Shown in pieces: positions 2,851 to 23,100 of a DNA stretch of 24,000 bases. The position numbers were made by a program, and so were the translations under genes. The DNA comes from Cyanobacteriota bacterium. Its GTDB lineage: Bacteria > Cyanobacteriota > Cyanobacteriia > Cyanobacteriales > Microcoleaceae. The stretch spans positions 1-24,000 of the forward strand of contig JBEDKD010000203.1 in assembly GCA_041172365.1 (NCBI GenBank). Direction: 5' to 3'. The notes beneath the pieces were generated by a model. That model saw only the letters and a list, made by a program, of their open reading frames with translations, was not told the DNA's origin and made no database searches. How positions within the stretch are numbered: the stretch's first letter is position 1; each line of letters starts with the position of its first letter.

Positions 2851-3020
2851 ATAAAAAAGTGACTTTATCACTATCAAATGATATTACCGAGAAACAGTTT
2901 CAGAAACCCAGTTTCTTTGATTTGAACTAAAATTCAAACTTTTTTGATGACAAACCCCCCAAATTTTCCCAAACCGATTAAAATAAGAAAAGTAAAACAG
3001 AAGTCTTATGGGAATCCTTC

Positions 3021-4385
3021 ATGTCGGTAGTCTCAGTATTCGCGTCGATCGCAGTCTTAGCTATTCTTATTGTTGTTCACGAATTGGGGCACTTTCTCGC
3101 GGCACGTTGGCAAAATATCCACGTTAACCGTTTTTCCATCGGATTTGGCCCCATTCTTTGGAAATATCAAGGACCAGAAACAGAATACGCGATCCGAGGT
3201 TTTCCCCTGGGAGGTTTTGTCGGTTTTCCTGATGATGATCCTGATAGTAATATTCCTCCAAATGATCCCAATTTACTCCGTAATCGTCCGATTTTTGATC
3301 GGGCGATCGTCATTAGTGCAGGGGTGATCGCGAATTTAATTTTTGCCTATCTTCTGCTGGTATTTCAAATCGGTTTACTGGGAGTGCAAGAATTAGCACC
3401 CGGAGTATCTATTTCCCAAGTTAGTCCTCAAATTACTGTCGCGACTAAGGCGGGAATTAAACCAGGCGATCTGGTTTTAGCTGTCAATGGTGAAACTTTG
3501 GGTACTGAAACCGCCGCGGTGAAATCATTACAGGAATATATCCAAAAGCGCCCTAATCAATCGGTTCAATTATTAATTAAACGTGATAATGGTGCAACGT
3601 TAACCATTAGTGTTACTCCCGAAAAATCTAGTGATGGTAAGGGACGAATAGGGGTTCAATTAGCCCCGAATAGTGGAAAACCGGGTGTTTTAATGAATCC
3701 TGTCCCTGAAGTGATGCTCGCGTCTGATGCGGGGCTAAAACCGGGTGATGTTGTCTTAGCTGTTAATGGTGAAAAATTAGGAAAAATCCCAGGGGGCATG
3801 ACGGCTTTTATGGATTTTTTCTCAAGTCATCCGAATGAAAAAGTTTCTCTGTTAATTCAACAAGGAAGTGAAGAAAAGACGATTGAAGTCACGCCAACAA
3901 CTGCTGAAAGTCAAGGGTTTATTGCTCTGAGATTAGCGCCTAATGTCATCAGAAACAAAGCGCAAAATATCGGAGATGCCTTTAATAAGGGTGCGACGGA
4001 ATTTCAAAATATTTTCGTGAATACCTGGAAAGGATTTGGCAAATTAATCACCAATTTTCAACAAACCGCGGATCAATTATCTGGTCCTGTTGCTATTGTC
4101 GCCATTGGTGCGGATATTGCCAAATCTGATGGGGCGGCTCTTTTTCAATTTGCGGCAATTATTAGCATTAACCTGGCAATTATTAACATTTTACCTCTTC
4201 CGGCCCTTGATGGAGGTCAATTGGTATTTCTCTTAATTGAAGGATTATTAGGAAAACCATTACCCAATCGTATTCAGGAAGGTGTTATGCAGACGGGGTT
4301 AATCTTATTACTGGGGTTGGGTATTATCTTGATTGTTCGAGATACTGCCCATTTAGAATGGGTGCAAAAGTTGTTTCAACAATAA
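3021..4385 (+). CDS. rseP: RIP metalloprotease RseP / site-2 protease (peptidase M50) with two PDZ-like segments
   Basis: HELGH zinc motif in the first TM helix (VVHELGHFLAA). C-terminal LPLPALDGG motif. There are two internally similar PDZ-like stretches (GIKPGDLVLAVNGETLG and GLKPGDVVLAVNGEKLG). N- and C-termini are hydrophobic. Confidence 0.9.
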   Translation: MSVVSVFASIAVLAILIVVHELGHFLAARWQNIHVNRFSIGFGPILWKYQGPETEYAIRGFPLGGFVGFPDDDPDSNIPPNDPNLLRNRPIFDRAIVISAGVIANLIFAYLLLVFQIGLLGVQELAPGVSISQVSPQITVATKAGIKPGDLVLAVNGETLGTETAAVKSLQEYIQKRPNQSVQLLIKRDNGATLTISVTPEKSSDGKGRIGVQLAPNSGKPGVLMNPVPEVMLASDAGLKPGDVVLAVNGEKLGKIPGGMTAFMDFFSSHPNEKVSLLIQQGSEEKTIEVTPTTAESQGFIALRLAPNVIRNKAQNIGDAFNKGATEFQNIFVNTWKGFGKLITNFQQTADQLSGPVAIVAIGADIAKSDGAALFQFAAIISINLAIINILPLPALDGGQLVFLLIEGLLGKPLPNRIQEGVMQTGLILLLGLGIILIVRDTAHLEWVQKLFQQ

Positions 4386-4544
4386 TTAGAAAATAGGATA
4401 TGGGGCATTATATCATATCAGTACATTTTTTGTCAATAGCTAAAGAAAATAATGCCTTATATCCTATACCTTTAGGCCCCCATTAGTCTCTAAGGAGTTA
4501 AGTTTATCATGATATTTTAACAATTATAAAGTAATATTTCATTT

Positions 4545-4872
4545 GCTTGTGTTGCTCATCGGTGTAGGGAATAATGAAAGATAAGGGGAAACAGGAACTA
4601 AAGCTTGTGTCACCCCGCCATAACGCCACGGACTTACTGAAACCATAGACAATTTGGGACAATCCATGAAGTCTAAGTAAATCCAGGCTCTGGATCAGAC
4701 CACCGTTATCGGGAAGCGTTAAAGTTCCTACCTTGGGATGCTTGCCAGTTCCAAGCCCTAGAACTAAACAGTTAAACAAGCAAGGGTTTATTTAAAGCTA
4801 GTGCTGTTTGGATAGTACCGACTGATAACTTAGCCGAGGCACACATTACTGAAAAGGTCAGACACAACCATG
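4545..4872 (+). ncRNA. Putative IscB omega-RNA (HEARO-type structured RNA) immediately upstream of, and abutting, the iscB start codon. Boundaries are approximate.
   Basis: The 484-bp gap between rseP and iscB has no plausible + strand ORF. Verified local stems: ATCCAG-GCT-CTGGAT (4681-4695) and GTTCCTACCTTGG...CCAAGCCCTAGAAC (4724-4736 pairing with 4751-4764). The strings GCCACGGACTTACTGAAA and GGGAAGCGTTAAAGTTCCTACC resemble my recollection of published IscB omega-RNA scaffolds. The position, 5' of an IscB ORF on the same strand, is where omega-RNAs are encoded. Confidence 0.55.
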
Positions 4873-6144
4873 TCTAACTATGTTTTTGTTCTTGATACCC
4901 TCAAAAAACCTTTAACTCCCTGTAAGCCATCAATAGCACGAAAGTTGTTAAATGCTGGCAAGGCGGCTGTGTTTCGATGGTATCCATTTACCATCATTTT
5001 AAAAAAGGAGGTTGATGCCAATCCCGAACCACTCGAACTGAAACTAGATCCCGGTTCTAAAGTGACAGGAATTGCACTAAAAAAAGGCAACAAAATTATT
5101 TTTGGTGCCGAGTTGATTCATCAAGGACACGCGATTAAATCTCGTCTTGATTCCCGTCGTGCTATTCGACGTTCTCGACGAAATAGAAAAACTCGGTATC
5201 GTCCAGCTAGATTTCTTAATCGCACTCGTTCAAAGGGCTCCTTAGCTCCCTCCCTACAACATCGAGTAGAAACGACTATGACTTGGGTGAATCGCCTTCG
5301 GAAATTAGCACCGCTCGGTTCTATTTCTCAAGAATTAGTCAGATTTGATCTAAAACAGATGGAAAACCCAGAAATCTCAGGGATTGAATATCAACAAGGG
5401 GAATTACAAGGTTACGAGATTCGAGAATATCTACTTAATAAATGGGAGAGAAAATGTGCTTATTGTCGGGCAGAAAATGTGCCGTTACAAGTGGAACATA
5501 TTGAACCCAAAGCTAAAGGTGGAACTAATCGCATCTCCAATCTTTGTCTTTCTTGTGAGAAGTGTAACCAGAAAAAGGGGACTCAAGATATTAAGCAATT
5601 CTTAGCTGAAAAGCCAGAGATTCTTCACGGGATTTTATCTCAAGCTAAAAGACCTCTTAAGGATGCGGCGGCGGTTAATTCAACTCGATGGGCTTTGTTT
5701 AATCGACTCCAAGAAACAGGTTTACCTGTCTCAACGGGTTCTGGTGGATTAACTAAATTTAATCGAGTGCGATTAAATTTACCCAAATCACATTGGTTAG
5801 ATGCCGCGTGCGTGGGAAAAGTTGATTCTTTAGAGATTCTGACAACTCAACCGTTACGCATCACCGCGAAAGGATGGGGTTGTCGCCAAATGGTTCAAAA
5901 TGACAAATACGGTTTTCCTCGAAAGAATTATCGGGCAAAACAAAAAGTGAAAGAATGGAAAACGGGTGATATCGTTTCTGTCATCAGAGGAAAATGGGCA
6001 CCAATAACAGGAAAACGTATCAAAACGGTTCGATTTCAGGGTAATTTTGATGTCCGATTAGATAGCTCAACAGTAATCAGTGTATCTCGAAATCACATCA
6101 AGGCTATTCATCGCCAAGATGGATACGATTATACCTTTGTCTGA
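4870..6144 (+). CDS. iscB: IscB-type RNA-guided nuclease (OMEGA system effector; RRXRR/HNH protein), 424 aa
   Basis: Domain order by eye: PLMP-type N-terminus (KPLTPC aa 13-18); RuvC-I LKLDPGSKVTGIAL (D60, nt 5047-5049); Arg-rich bridge helix RLDSRRAIRRSRRNRKTRYRPARF; RuvC-II ISQELVRFD (E155, nt 5332-5334); HNH insert CAYC...VEHIEPKAKGG...NLCLSCEKCNQKKG (nt 5455-5577); RuvC-III SHWLDAACVG (H308 nt 5791-5793, D311 nt 5800-5802); and a C-terminal tail of about 95 aa. Confidence 0.85.
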   Translation: MSNYVFVLDTLKKPLTPCKPSIARKLLNAGKAAVFRWYPFTIILKKEVDANPEPLELKLDPGSKVTGIALKKGNKIIFGAELIHQGHAIKSRLDSRRAIRRSRRNRKTRYRPARFLNRTRSKGSLAPSLQHRVETTMTWVNRLRKLAPLGSISQELVRFDLKQMENPEISGIEYQQGELQGYEIREYLLNKWERKCAYCRAENVPLQVEHIEPKAKGGTNRISNLCLSCEKCNQKKGTQDIKQFLAEKPEILHGILSQAKRPLKDAAAVNSTRWALFNRLQETGLPVSTGSGGLTKFNRVRLNLPKSHWLDAACVGKVDSLEILTTQPLRITAKGWGCRQMVQNDKYGFPRKNYRAKQKVKEWKTGDIVSVIRGKWAPITGKRIKTVRFQGNFDVRLDSSTVISVSRNHIKAIHRQDGYDYTFV

Positions 6145-6460
6145 TTTTGTCCTTATTTGTCTAGCAAAAATGATGGAGGATAAACCGATGTATAATAGTC
6201 GAACCCCTGGACTCTCGAATACACAACAGAAGTATCTGAGAGAGCTAAACTTAGTTTCTCAACGTAATTGTCAGTTACGTGCCCGCGTTTCCCCTGAAGA
6301 AGCTTTGGTGAATGCTGAGTTAGAAGATTTATCTAATTTGTTAGCTTCTTTGGAGAGTTTTTCAGGAAAATAGACTAGGTTAGTAAATATCATTTACTCC
6401 TATTGGTACGCGGAACTCTTATGGCCAAGAGTTTAGATTTATACTGCCCATCTACAAGTA

Positions 6461-6501
6461 GAAACCCAATTTTATATCAAAATTGGGTTTCATCTTATTT
6501 T
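6461..6501 (+). terminator. Intrinsic-terminator-like hairpin downstream of iscB (alternatively an IS right-end structure)
   Basis: Perfect 13-bp stem GAAACCCAATTTT / AAAATTGGGTTTC (6461-6473 and 6479-6491) with a 5-nt loop, followed by the T-rich ATCTTATTTT. Confidence 0.5.
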
Positions 6502-6558
6502 AAGTTTCGTCTTTATTTGTTTGAGGAGATGAAAACAGCACCAATGGTTTTAATATAA

Positions 6559-7356
<798 letters not shown>

Positions 7357-7394
7357 TGTCATTATTTTCAGAAAAAATGGGAGTTTAAGAAAAT

Positions 7395-7524
7395 AACCAC
7401 TAAGGCACAAAGGCAAGAGAAAATAAACCGATTAAACCTCCGAATTGCGCTTATTTTATTCTCTTAAATCACCTCAAAGTGATAGAAGATTCACCTCTTT
7501 GTGTCCTCTGTGCCTTTGTGGTTC
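7395..7524. repeat. Inverted pair of octamer-family blocks (7395-7419 AACCACTAAGGCACAAAGGCAAGAG and 7494-7524 CCTCTTTGTGTCCTCTGTGCCTTTGTGGTTC) downstream of fabG
   Basis: The reverse complement of 7494-7524 is GAACCACAAAGGCACAGAGGACACAAAGAGG, which resembles 7395-7425. It could form a long imperfect hairpin just 3' of fabG. Confidence 0.65.
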
Positions 7525-7774
7525 ATTTTATTTCTTTAGGGAAAGAATAACCAAGAGACGTGCATCATTAATAAATAACAATAAGTCGTTATTTATCGCA
7601 TCCCATTAACAGCTACGATCAAAAAAATACCGCGTGGCTGCACATCCGGGTAAATCGGGTGGATAGGCTCAATAGACATCTCCAAAAACTACTGTAGGGT
7701 AGCATTAGCCTGCTTTTTACCTTATTTTTAGGAGATGTCTATTATGATTTAAGTATCACATAAATTTGATGTAT

Positions 7775-8137
7775 TTATTCAGTCCAAGCACTAAGAAACT
7801 CTATTTGATTTTGCATTTCTTCCGCTGACTTGACAGAAATTATATTCAAAAGGCGACGCATTTGTTCTCCCAGAGAATAATTTTGCTGTCCTAAAATAAT
7901 TCCTGCATGAGAGTCACCTTTTTCTAGCCAATTGGTATGGATTCTATAAAAATCCCTAGTGTTGAAACTATAAATTACCCTTTGATTCGCACAAGCCCAA
8001 ATCAGTTGATCCTCATCACTCCGAGATAACATCCCTGTTTCGGCAACTGTAATGGTATCTACACCACGACTTTGTAAAGCTTGTAATAGTTTTTTGCTGC
8101 GGGAATCTTCATCTAAGTAAAGACGAATTTGGCTCAT
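7775..8137 (-). CDS. DUF5615-family PIN-like (Mut7-C-like) putative toxin
   Basis: IRLYLDEDS...DEDQLIWACANQRVIYSFNTRDF...HAGIIL matches the DUF5615 pattern as I recall it. It has a 4-nt ATGA overlap with the upstream DUF433 gene. Confidence 0.75.
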   Translation of the reverse strand: MSQIRLYLDEDSRSKKLLQALQSRGVDTITVAETGMLSRSDEDQLIWACANQRVIYSFNTRDFYRIHTNWLEKGDSHAGIILGQQNYSLGEQMRRLLNIISVKSAEEMQNQIEFLSAWTE

Positions 8138-8433
8138 ACTGTCCCCTGATTTTTTCGCTGATTTAATGCTGCCAAACGCTCATATTCCGCTTTTTCGGCC
8201 GCTAAATCTGCTTCGATTTCCGCTCGATTTGCGTGATAATAAGTCAGCGCAGCATAAACTTGCGCTAAGGTGAGATGATCCAAATCCGCGGCTATTTCTT
8301 CAGCATTATTGCCTTGTTTGTATAAGGCGGCAATTCGCTGCACTGATGTAGCTGTATCTGCAATGATAGGGATGCCACCGCGAAGGTGTGGATTGCGGAT
8401 AATTAAAGTGCCAATATCAGTTAAAGTTGGCAT
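8134..8433 (-). CDS. DUF433-family putative antitoxin
   Basis: IIRNPHLRGGIPIIADTATSVQRIAALYKQGNNAEEIAADLDHLTLAQVYAALTYY matches the DUF433 consensus as I recall it. It is translationally coupled to the DUF5615 gene. Confidence 0.75.
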   Translation of the reverse strand: MPTLTDIGTLIIRNPHLRGGIPIIADTATSVQRIAALYKQGNNAEEIAADLDHLTLAQVYAALTYYHANRAEIEADLAAEKAEYERLAALNQRKNQGTV

Positions 8434-8480
8434 GGATTAATCAGGGGTTAAATGTTAGAATTTAATTTTAGCACATAACC

Positions 8481-9436
8481 AAAGAAACCGGGTTTTTACC
8501 TATAAATTTGGGTGAAAGAGCCCCTACAGAAGCACTCCATTCCTAGCTAAAAATGAGATCAATTTTTCCACATTATCCTTGTAGGGGCGCGATCGCCAAT
8601 ATCTTCGCCACCAAACAGATAGGCCAGAAAACCCGCCCCATCCCATTATATAGAAATTAATTTAACCGCAGATGAACGCAGATGAACACAGATGTTTGGC
8701 CTTATGTGGGTAGGAATGGGACTCGTTTATATCATTATGTCGGTGGGGTTGGGGCGGGTTTATTGAGGTTATTTGTGAGATTGATAAATTTGGGTGAAAG
8801 AGCCCCTACGTTTAACCGTTTTGAGATTAGCACGTATGATCAAAGAAACCGGGTTTTTACCTAATCTAATGGTGATAACGAAGTATTTAGTAAAAAACCC
8901 GGTTTCTGAACCCACATTATCCTTGTAGGGGCGCGATCGCCAATATCTTCGCCACCAAACAGATAGGCCAGAAAACCCGCCCCATCCCCACCGACATAAT
9001 GATATAAACGCGCGCCATTCCTACCGAAAAATTCCCAATTCATTCCATTTAATCCTTGGGTTGGGGCGGGTTTATTGAGGTTATTTGTGAGATTGATAAA
9101 TTTGGGTGAACCCGCCCCTACAGAAGCGCTCCATTCCTACCTAGAAATGAGATCAATTTTTCCACATTATCCTTGTAGGGGCCGTATCGCCAATATCTTC
9201 GCCACCAAACAGATAAGCCAGAAAACCCGCCCCATCCCATTATATAGAAATTAATTTAACCGCAGATGAACGCAGATGAACACAGATGTTTGGCCTTATG
9301 TGGGTAGGAATGAGACTCGTTTATATTATTCTGTCGGTGGGGTTGGGGCGGGTTTATTGAGGTTATTTGTGAGATTGATAAATTTGGGTGAAAGAGCCCC
9401 TACGTTTAACCGTTTTGAGATTAGCACGTATGATCA
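8481..9436. repeat. Nest of MITE-like small dispersed repeats, including a 341-bp direct duplication (8502-8842 and 9096-9436, offset 594 bp) and an inverted partial copy at about 8905-9043
   Basis: Direct reading: ATAAATTTGGGTGAA...GTATGATCA occurs at both positions with only a few substitutions. Modules such as GGGGCGGGTTT-N45-GCCCCTAC, AAAGAAACCGGGTTTTTACC and CGCAGATGAAC x2 are shuffled in both orientations. Confidence 0.85.
8842..8909. repeat. 68-bp hairpin element of the AAAGAAACCGGGTTTTT...AAAAACCCGGTTTCTGA family
   Basis: Terminal inverted repeats are 8842-8858 and 8892-8909. A second full copy at 12395-12463 has a related loop sequence. Half-sites occur at 8481-8500 and 11196-11215. 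Confidence 0.8.
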
Positions 9437-11316: not shown

Positions 11317-11398
11317 GTAGTGGGTTGGCGTAGCCTGTGGGGAGCATCGGACGTCTCGCTTTGTATTAGAACCCTAGGGAGCGAGACGCTCCCACTAC
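11317..11398. repeat. MITE-like element of about 80 bp with GTAGTGGG...CCCACTAC termini. A second, inverted copy lies at 23026-23100.
   Basis: The reverse complement of 23026-23100 aligns by eye with 11317-11398 (GTAGTGGGTTGGCGTAGCCTGTG.GGAGCATCGGAC.TCTCGCT...GGGAGCGAGACG.TCCCACT). It has an internal stem GTCTCGCT / AGCGAGAC. Confidence 0.75.
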
Positions 11399-11472
11399 CA
11401 ATTTACCAACATGAGCCCGATCGCGCTTTTGATTCCATAAACCCGATCGCGCTCTCATTAAACTTTCCCCAT

Positions 11473-11967
11473 CTATCCCAAAGTCAAGACACCCGCGTTA
11501 AAATTGACAGTTAACGGAAAGAGTTTCAACCATTGCAAACCCAAAATCGGCTCAGGAATACCCGCACCTACCAACACAGGAATCATATACTCCTCTCCAT
11601 CCAATACAACCGTTCCCTGATAGATATAGCAACCGCCAGGGTAGTTAAGTCGTGGGGTGGGGGCGGGTTTTTATAATTTGTCTTTGGGGTTCAAAGATGA
11701 GGGTGAACCCGCCCCTACAAAATCTGTCCTAATAGCCTTGGCAGTTGCTATATCAAAAAAGTCAAGCCCCCGTGCTGTCTGCATCGTTTCATTTCGTTGA
11801 ATTACACACCAACCTAAACTTTCAGCATCTTGAGTATCAAGGGCTAACCACCCAGTTGTAAACCCCGTATCTAATAACACTTCAATGGGAAATCTTTCGC
11901 GATCAGCCGCAATTAAATCTATTTCAAAAAAGAGTTCCCCAATCTCGCCAAACTTGCCATTTATCAT
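11473..11967 (-). pseudogene. Retropepsin-like (clan AA) aspartic protease gene interrupted by a 67-bp dispersed repeat that supplies an in-frame TAA
   Basis: The N-terminal part (11671-11967) carries the active-site block VLLDTGFTTG. After the repeat, the same frame continues (11473-11652) as RLNYPGGCYIYQGTVVLDGEEYMIPVLVGAGIPEPILGLQWLKLFPLTVNFNAGVLTLG*, a typical C-terminal half of this family. Both parts share phase (11671 and 11473 are both 1 mod 3). Confidence 0.65.
11652..11718. repeat. 67-bp dispersed repeat (GGGGCGGGTTT...GGGTGAACCCGCCCCTAC family) inserted in the protease gene
   Basis: GTGGGGTGGGGGCGGGTTTTTATAATTTGTCTTTGGGGTTCAAAGATGAGGGTGAACCCGCCCCTAC. It has the same architecture as the units at about 8745-8810 and 9056-9120. 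GGGGCGGGTT can pair with AACCCGCCCC. Confidence 0.75.
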
Positions 11968-22426: not shown

Positions 22427-22706
22427 TATTTCAACGTATATTGAGAAATTTAAAAACAGTCTCACTAAGAATTTGCTAGATTTAATTCGTCTCATTTTTA
22501 TTGGGAATGACTATACACCACAAAGGCACTAAGGAATTAGGAGTAATACAACACTAAGACACTAAGACACTAAGGAAGAGGAATTCCTCAGAAGGAATCC
22601 CTCAGACGTAATATAATCATTTCAACGTATATTGAGAAATTCAAAAAACAGTCTCACTAAGAATTTGCTAGATTTAACTCGTCTCATTTTTATGGAAATG
22701 ACTATA
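22427..22706. repeat. Two copies of about 88 bp (22427-22515 and 22619-22706, offset 191 bp) bracketing an octamer-family block (CACAAAGG CACTAAGG ... CACTAAGA x2 CACTAAGG)
   Basis: ATTTCAACGTATATTGAGAAATT.AAAAACAGTCTCACTAAGAATTTGCTAGATTTAA.TCGTCTCATTTTTAT.GGAAATGACTATA was read at both positions. Confidence 0.85.
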
Positions 22707-22796: not shown

Positions 22797-23025
22797 GAGG
22801 ATTGAACTACGCTCTACCCAACCTACAAAAAATGGCGTAGGTGTTGTCAATACTCAACAGCTTATCTGCCGCAATTCTTCTGTTTTTTCCATAACAAAAT
22901 TTCAGTTTTATACTATGATATTGTAAGTTGTGTTGAAAAAAATGGAGATGGTTACTAGGACTCTCTTTGTCTATTCAAGCTGGGAGCATCCCGATAGTGT
23001 AAAAAGCTTTTTTTTGGAGTGGGAT

Positions 23026-23100
23026 CGTCTCGCTCCCTAGCCCGATGGAGCCGGGAGCGAGAGGTCCGATGCTCCGCACAGGCTACGCCAACCCACTACC
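23026..23100. repeat. Inverted copy of the MITE-like element seen at 11317-11398
   Basis: GGAGTGGGATCGTCTCGCTCCC...GGGAGCGAGAGGTCCGATGCTCCGCACAGGCTACGCCAACCCACTACC is the reverse complement of the 11.3-kb copy with a variant central loop. Confidence 0.75.

Follow-up and report, generated by a model that had tools for sequence, protein, structure and literature searches.

A Predicted HEARO-Family Omega-RNA Upstream of iscB in a Probable IS200/IS605-Type Element of a Microcoleaceae Cyanobacterium

Organization of the Locus and the IscB Protein

The stretch of cyanobacterial DNA analyzed here, 24,000 nucleotides in length and referred to as the window, carries an rseP-like gene for an M50 protease (3021-4385, plus strand), followed by host intergenic DNA, an omega-RNA (HEARO) scaffold, an iscB gene, and a small host open reading frame (ORF), all on the same strand. 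The scaffold and iscB lie within an inserted mobile element of 1,545 bp (4631-6175, ±2 nt), whose right end in transposase terms is at 4631 and whose left end is near 6175. The iscB gene (4870-6144, plus strand) is intact and encodes a protein of 424 aa with Pfam matches to RRXRR (1.5e-71) and HNH (4.3e-11), and the RNA that precedes it on that strand ends at 4849-4861. As proposed in an initial annotation made from the sequence alone, no credible plus-strand ORF precedes iscB, none of at least 40 aa being found in 4386-4869. The minus-strand ORF noted there at 4507-4779 is present and antisense, without a Pfam match; because it crosses the boundary between host and element DNA at 4631, it is a chimera of the two and not a gene.

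The protein matches the solved IscB structures TbaIscB, HfmIscB, and OgeuIscB. In alignments to the PDB chains, its residues D60, E155, H210, H308, and D311 fall on the catalytic residues of RuvC-I, RuvC-II, HNH, and RuvC-III of OgeuIscB, which we take to be D61/E193/H247/H340/D343 in the numbering of that enzyme, as matched to the same chain alignments. It shares with OgeuIscB/GstIscB (PDB 7xht, 7utn) an RRXRR/PLMP N-terminus, a split RuvC, and an inserted HNH, although the similarity is modest (phmmer E ~1e-23) and its 424 aa compare with ~496.

Near-identical copies of the element occur in other Microcoleaceae genomes, with DNA identities of 94.5% for the copy designated L001 and 92.6-92.8% for the copy designated L002. 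Judged from sequence divergence, the element is under purifying selection: iscB of the window and of L001 both encode full-length proteins with a dN/dS of 0.19, and 12 of the 239 positions of their RNAs differ (5%), compared with a dS of 0.15 in the ORF. The same protein and locus are present in several independent samples. The copy in L002 (Microcoleaceae UBA9251, L002:3001-4330) is a pseudogene, stopped at codon 72 and with a longer aligned span; its first scaffold base is C in place of G, and two substitutions break its 3' hairpin.

Identification of the Upstream RNA

The initial annotation proposed a HEARO-class omega-RNA that shares the strand of iscB, precedes it, and runs up to it, and suggested a covariance-model search together with a covariation analysis of homologous loci. 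The proposal is upheld by the Rfam model, by an independently built model, by covariation, and by the intact IscB. The HEARO RNA is, as Weinberg et al. 2010 and Altae-Tran et al. 2021 are said to have described, the IscB omega-RNA of OMEGA systems. In an Rfam scan of the whole window, HEARO (RF02033) was the single match at gathering level, at 4677-4849 (+) with 86.5 bits (E 1.7e-16), exceeding the gathering score of 83 bits by only 3.5 bits. The sister copy in L001 scored 87.6 bits against RF02033, with the terminal stem P1 included.

For comparison, 78 loci encoding IscB relatives were fetched, and a covariance model, R1, was built from 14 of them, with the window and its close copies deliberately left out. 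R1 gave one match in the window (4658-4849, 84.3 bits, E 4e-20), with no second HEARO copy found there, and 69 matches across the 78 related loci; every one is on the strand of iscB, and almost all immediately precede that gene. In an alignment of these 69 matches, which is fitted to R1 (A6), standard pairs occupy 93.3% of cells versus 69.4% when shuffled, a value reached by 0 of 500 shuffles, and both-sided (compensatory) changes are seen in 41 of 45 pairs; in a control on the R1-fitted alignment in which the partners were slid by 1-3 columns, pairing was at most 43%. Compensatory changes were found by RNAalifold in 27 of 45 pairs of a MAFFT-only alignment (A5). A MAFFT alignment that included the window family placed P1 off by 3 columns, with the result that RNAalifold lost P1, and it was rebuilt without that family. 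In minimum free energy, the whole scaffold does not fall below shuffled sequences (z 0.17), and thermodynamic stability was not used as evidence.

By homology and covariation, the region upstream of iscB is assigned as encoding a HEARO/omega-RNA, an ordinary member of a well-described system. The RNA scores above the curated threshold and shares with HEARO its position and strand relative to iscB, its covarying helices, its ACAUUAC tail, and the coincidence of its 5' end with the transposon end. From the scaffold start to the ATG there are 239 nt, compared with a published mean of 242 bp for HEARO RNA upstream of iscB (bioRxiv 10.1101/2023.03.14.532601).

Structure of the Scaffold

The scaffold extends from 4631 to 4861 on the plus strand, with model support to 4849 and a probable short terminal hairpin to 4861; its true 3' end may lie as far downstream as the iscB start codon. 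The core is a multibranch domain (4686-4835) defined by the Rfam and R1 alignments and by per-pair covariation. It is closed by an enclosing helix (4686-4688/4833-4835) and comprises a helix at 4705-4712/4822-4829, a covarying hairpin CUUGGGAU/GUUCCAAG (4732-4739/4748-4755), and a helix at 4764-4772/4803-4811 with inner pairs at 4776-4777/4801-4802 and 4779-4781/4797-4799. Substitutions that distinguish the window from L001/L002 at 4750, 4765, and 4766 all preserve the pairs in which they fall. The small hairpin that follows the enclosing helix has only 2-3 pairs in the window RNA, unlike that of other HEARO RNAs. Downstream of the core, the single-stranded 3' tail GAGGCACACAUUAC (4836-4849) occupies nearly invariant columns (A3/A5) and is aligned with high posterior by both models.

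Several elements drawn earlier can be placed on this structure. The pairing of 4724-4736 with 4751-4764 exists and corresponds to the hairpin CUUGGGAU/GUUCCAAG plus UC/GA of the Rfam model, and the string GGGAAGCGTTAAAGTTCCTACC, put forward in the initial annotation as a conserved omega-RNA segment, was located as given at 4711-4732, inside the HEARO match and the core. The hairpin assigned to 4681-4695 can be drawn in the window but is not conserved, since substitutions at 4691 and 4694 remove two of its six pairs in L001 and one of six in L002; it also competes with P1 and with the conserved helix 4686-4688/4833-4835. A second such string, GCCACGGACTTACTGAAA, is found at 4625-4642 and not at 4624-4641, and it straddles the junction between host and element; because its GCCACG is host flank, the string in its entirety cannot represent a conserved segment of the omega-RNA.

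Stem P1 (4631-4638/4676-4683, spanning 4631-4683) encloses an inner hairpin at 4646-4650/4671-4675. In the window family it is formed by GACUUACU (4631-4638) with AGUAAGUC (4676-4683), and a 37-nt insert with its own hairpin lies inside, whereas the P1 common in HEARO and found in most relatives is GUCAGCA/UGCUGAC. In a 66%-identical relative (L023), the stem reads GACUUACCA/UGGUAAGUC, with a compensatory change from U-A to C-G. Unlike other HEARO RNAs, the window copy contains one P1 mismatch, C4633-A4681, which occurs in this copy alone, the equivalent of 4681 being G in L001, L002, and L023. The mismatch weakens the stem and probably explains why neither covariance model (Rfam or R1) aligns P1 in the window; the stem was established from L001, L002, and L023 and from folding. 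The RF02033 alignment of the L001 RNA begins at the base equivalent to 4631 and includes all eight P1 pairs. The fold energy of P1 is -8.5 kcal/mol in the window (z -1.2), compared with -15.8 in L001 (z -3.9) and -16.3 in L023 (z -6.3).

A short hairpin directly 3' of ACAUUAC is found in 31 of 46 relatives versus 23.9 ± 3.3 in shuffled sequences, with a summed score of 274 versus 184 ± 26, and its sequence varies among relatives. In the window it is formed by CUGA (4849-4852) with UCAG (4858-4861). This pairing and an alternative, AGACA/UGUCU (4860-4864/4871-4875), which takes in the start codon, are mutually exclusive. In many relatives, the 3' arm of the terminal hairpin overlaps a GGAG-like ribosome-binding site.

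Boundaries of the Element and the Empty Site

The DNA common to the window and L001/L002 runs only from 4631/4632 to 6178, and the flanks are unrelated. Two metagenome contigs (L084 and L085), with an RseP 96% identical to that of the window, carry the same rseP-fabG locus without iscB. In these contigs, the sequences corresponding to 3000-4632 and 6175-7558 of the window are contiguous, which identifies the intervening 1,545 bp as an insertion; this insertion-free allele comes from a relative that is 5-7% divergent and is not the true pre-insertion allele. L085 reads ...CTAACGCCACGGAGGATAAG... at this point. The empty site reads ...CCACGGAGGATAA..., and its occupied counterpart ...CCAC GGA (element) GGA GGATAA; in full, the former is ...CTAACGCCAC-GGA-GGATAAGCCG... 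and the latter is ...ATAACGCCAC-GGA-CTTACTG...AAAAATGAT-GGA-GGATAAACCG.... With GGA at both junctions, the register of the boundaries is ambiguous by 3 nt, from 4630-6174 to 4633-6177. A 3-bp GGA target-site duplication was considered and rejected, as the left junction reads TGA in L001 and ACA in L002, while the right one reads GGA(G) in both. The insertion is precise, with a conserved motif on one side only and without a target-site duplication. When metagenome contigs were searched for exact matches to the left flank, none was found, and all places found with the 254-aa form of FabG carry the insertion, with no empty site among them.

Position 4631 is preferred as the first scaffold base because the L001 alignment to Rfam begins there, because the conserved block of the main family likewise opens with a G, the partner of the C that closes P1, and the contig L003 terminates at precisely this first scaffold base, and because G4631 is able to pair with C4683. 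The scaffold region had initially been drawn from 4545; the homology boundary with L001/L002, the empty site in L084/L085, and the P1 alignment of L001 instead place its start at about 4631.

The element is very probably a non-autonomous, IS200/IS605-type member of the OMEGA class, located between the rseP-like gene and the small ORF in the orientation of rseP. Precise insertion, a one-sided motif, the lack of a duplication, the absence of tnpA beside iscB, and the orientation of the upstream host gene are all features that it shares with non-autonomous, iscB-only IS200/IS605 elements. No match to Y1_Tnp (TnpA) was obtained among the ORFs scanned in the 24-kb window, and most iscB elements occur without tnpA (Meers et al. 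2023, bioRxiv 10.1101/2023.03.14.532601). The tail downstream of iscB, at ~31 nt, is unusually short compared with the 90-110 nt of most relatives.

Predicted Guide and Candidate TAM

In IscB systems, the guide is contiguous with the scaffold and is taken from the DNA next to the transposon end (Meers et al., bioRxiv 10.1101/2023.03.14.532601). With the scaffold starting precisely at that end, the guide at this locus would be flanking host DNA, most likely the ~16 nt directly 5' of the scaffold, CCGCCATAACGCCACG (4615-4630, plus strand), with a 3' boundary of ±2 nt and the 16-nt length adopted by analogy with characterized IscBs. This sequence occurs once only in the window, where no second guide match was found. 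The guide of the initial annotation, at 4541-4560, is misplaced: it lies ~70 nt upstream of the scaffold, in host DNA that is also present in the relative without the element.

A candidate TAM, (G)GAG (6175-6178, plus strand), was selected because the right junctions of the window, L001, L002, and L023 all preserve it and the empty site contains it; the base that follows GGAG is G, C, A, and T in these four copies, respectively. The right end of the window family and of L023 has the form AAAAAT-nnn-GGAG. This motif is likely to be the insertion target and the TAM of IscB, judging from only four insertions. It differs from the NWRRNA of OgeuIscB, as given in PMC12660989, and from the motif of Geobacillus GstTnpA/IscB elements, which is TTCAT on the transposase strand and ATGAA on the IscB strand (bioRxiv 10.1101/2023.03.14.532601). 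It differs likewise from the ...ATGA in which the conserved block of most relatives ends, an ending that resembles the Geobacillus ATGAA.

In the window, GGAG is part of GGAGGA (6175-6180), 7 nt upstream of the ATG of a 61-aa host ORF. A tentative reading, rather doubtful at present, is that the window family and L023 form a sub-lineage in which both transposon ends were re-specified together, from GUCAG... to GACUUAC... at the RNA-side tip and from ...ATGA to (G)GAG in the target/TAM at the other end, the old ATGA-like bases now being internal. If so, a matching change would be expected in the DNA-guide pairing of TnpA and in the TAM-reading domain of IscB, and the preferred target would resemble a ribosome-binding site, the insertion here having occurred on the GGAGGA of a small host ORF.

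Transcription Context

The host intergenic DNA downstream of rseP (4386-4614, plus strand) is outside the element and holds both the promoter and the guide that were proposed earlier. No plus-strand terminator-like site was found between rseP and the RNA, so that read-through from rseP is a plausible source of the guide-bearing transcript; on that strand, 4300-6700 holds a single such site, at 6461-6491, beyond the small ORF. Read-through would also fit the published tendency of iscB elements to be oriented like the gene that precedes them (bioRxiv 10.1101/2023.03.14.532601). Promoter-like sites are not in excess in the scanned region (9 versus 5.9 ± 2.6).

Additional features were recorded around the insertion. 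A perfect sigma-70 consensus lies on the minus strand at 4407-4436 (TTGACA-18 nt-TATAAT with an upstream TG, 12/12), just downstream of rseP and pointing into its 3' end; both hexamers are unchanged in the insertion-free L085, and this promoter might drive an antisense or divergent transcript. The 61-aa host ORF (6188-6373, plus strand) starts 13 nt past the insertion point and has a strong ribosome-binding site, and no Pfam match was found for it; the ORFs called at 6080/6119-6373 are chimeras across the right end of the element. An Rfam match to SSRC34_2 at 6456-6537 (minus strand), with 27.7 bits against a required 48, coincides with the terminator-like hairpin and was dismissed as chance.

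Proposed Mechanism and Alternative Explanations

The sequence comparisons show that the RNA and the protein belong to known families, that the RNA structure is conserved, where the element begins and ends, what its empty site looks like, and that it evolves under purifying selection. The first 239 nt of the element (4631-4869) encode the omega-RNA, with P1, the multibranch core, and the conserved ACAUUAC tail. For transcription, 5' processing, guide length, TAM, and cleavage, we infer the following steps by analogy with published work on IscB and TnpB. A transcript arriving from upstream, likely by rseP read-through or else from a host promoter, would supply both guide and scaffold. IscB (4870-6144) would bind this guide-bearing transcript, and the complex would recognize the donor joint left by excision of the element, that is, CCGCCATAACGCCACG followed by (G)GAG. 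The HNH and RuvC sites would cut this joint, and recombination with an occupied copy would then restore the element.

An alternative, implied by the initial annotation, is a longer omega-RNA that begins at ~4540, with a promoter at 4504-4532, a guide at 4541-4560, and extra scaffold at 4560-4676. A weak pair of hexamers resembling -35 and -10 elements does exist there (TTATCA 4504-4509 and TAAAGT 4527-4532), and a primary transcript could traverse guide and scaffold alike, but the pair agrees with the consensus at only 8/12 positions, falls below the scan threshold, and sits in host DNA. The whole interval 4386-4632 is 97% identical in the insertion-free L085, nothing upstream of 4631 is common to L001/L002, and the host stretch 4541-4630 shows no structure above chance (z +1.24 versus shuffles); in characterized IscB systems, moreover, the guide abuts the scaffold (Meers et al.). 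The longer RNA is already largely refuted by the empty site and is scarcely credible.

Two other explanations accept the RNA but question its role. That the element is a decaying, immobile relic, its RNA and protein still recognizable but with no RNA-guided nuclease action in the source strain, would agree with the P1 mismatch C4633-A4681 specific to the window copy, the borderline Rfam score, the lack of TnpA in the window, and the state of the sister copy L002, already a pseudogene, interrupted by a stop codon at codon 72 and altered in its terminal base. Decay is nevertheless unlikely in view of the full-length ORF with all five catalytic residues, the dN/dS of 0.19 against L001, the retention of pairing in three of four helix substitutions between the window and L001, and the recurrence of the protein and locus in several independent samples. 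The RNA might otherwise be mainly a cis-acting 5' leader that controls iscB translation through alternative 3' hairpins over the ribosome-binding site or start codon, and not a guide. The excess of hairpins after ACAUUAC over shuffles (31/46 versus 23.9 ± 3.3), the overlap of their 3' arm with a GGAG-like ribosome-binding site in many relatives, and the mutually exclusive pairings CUGA/UCAG (4849-4861) and AGACA/UGUCU (4860-4875, with the AUG) in the window all accord with such a leader. Cis-regulation is, however, compatible with guide function, which has been established experimentally for the HEARO RNA family, and a leader would leave the coincidence of the RNA 5' end with the transposon end unexplained; as the main role of this RNA, it is highly improbable.

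Significance

The locus offers a well-delimited natural example of IscB with its omega-RNA, accompanied by an empty-site comparator, a predicted guide, and a candidate TAM, the data required for testing a compact (424-aa) cyanobacterial IscB experimentally. The RNA family and the kind of locus are already known, and the current understanding of IscB/omega-RNA systems is unchanged; the only mildly unusual features are an end motif of the GGAG type and the variant form of P1. For work that surveys the diversity of TAMs with genome-editing tools in view, this P1 and the possible GGAG TAM might be of interest. The comparison also indicates that guide positions are better set from transposon boundaries than from promoter guesses.

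Other Features of the Window and Related Loci

Two of the comparison loci contain further iscB-related features. In Floridaenema flaviceps, a different iscB element (L007:5446-6530, minus strand) lies ~1.1 kb from a convergent rseP homologue, a proximity that is probably a coincidence. The Xenococcaceae contig L023 carries an additional, incomplete omega-RNA match at 801-911, which covers model positions 86-192 and precedes another iscB-like region.

Elsewhere in the window, a DUF433/DUF5615 gene pair (7775-8433, minus strand; Pfam labels from called genes) lies just downstream of fabG. Such pairs are usually annotated as toxin-antitoxin-like. Several repeats were also recorded. Three tandem copies of a ~90-nt unit and short repeats of the CACTAAGG type, the latter at both ends of the window, are found at 2-279, 62-91, 152-181, 243-272, and 22509-22579. 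Clustered direct and inverted repeats of 64-300 nt with 95-100% identity and GCGATCGC (HIP1-like) cores are located at 8475-9403 and 11655-11718, and they look like nested small mobile or repetitive elements. Adjacent inverted-repeat pairs at 11317-11401 and 23013-23099, which lie 11.6 kb apart, match over 44 nt (95%) and 28 nt (89%); they are suggestive of a single short element present twice, in opposite orientations.
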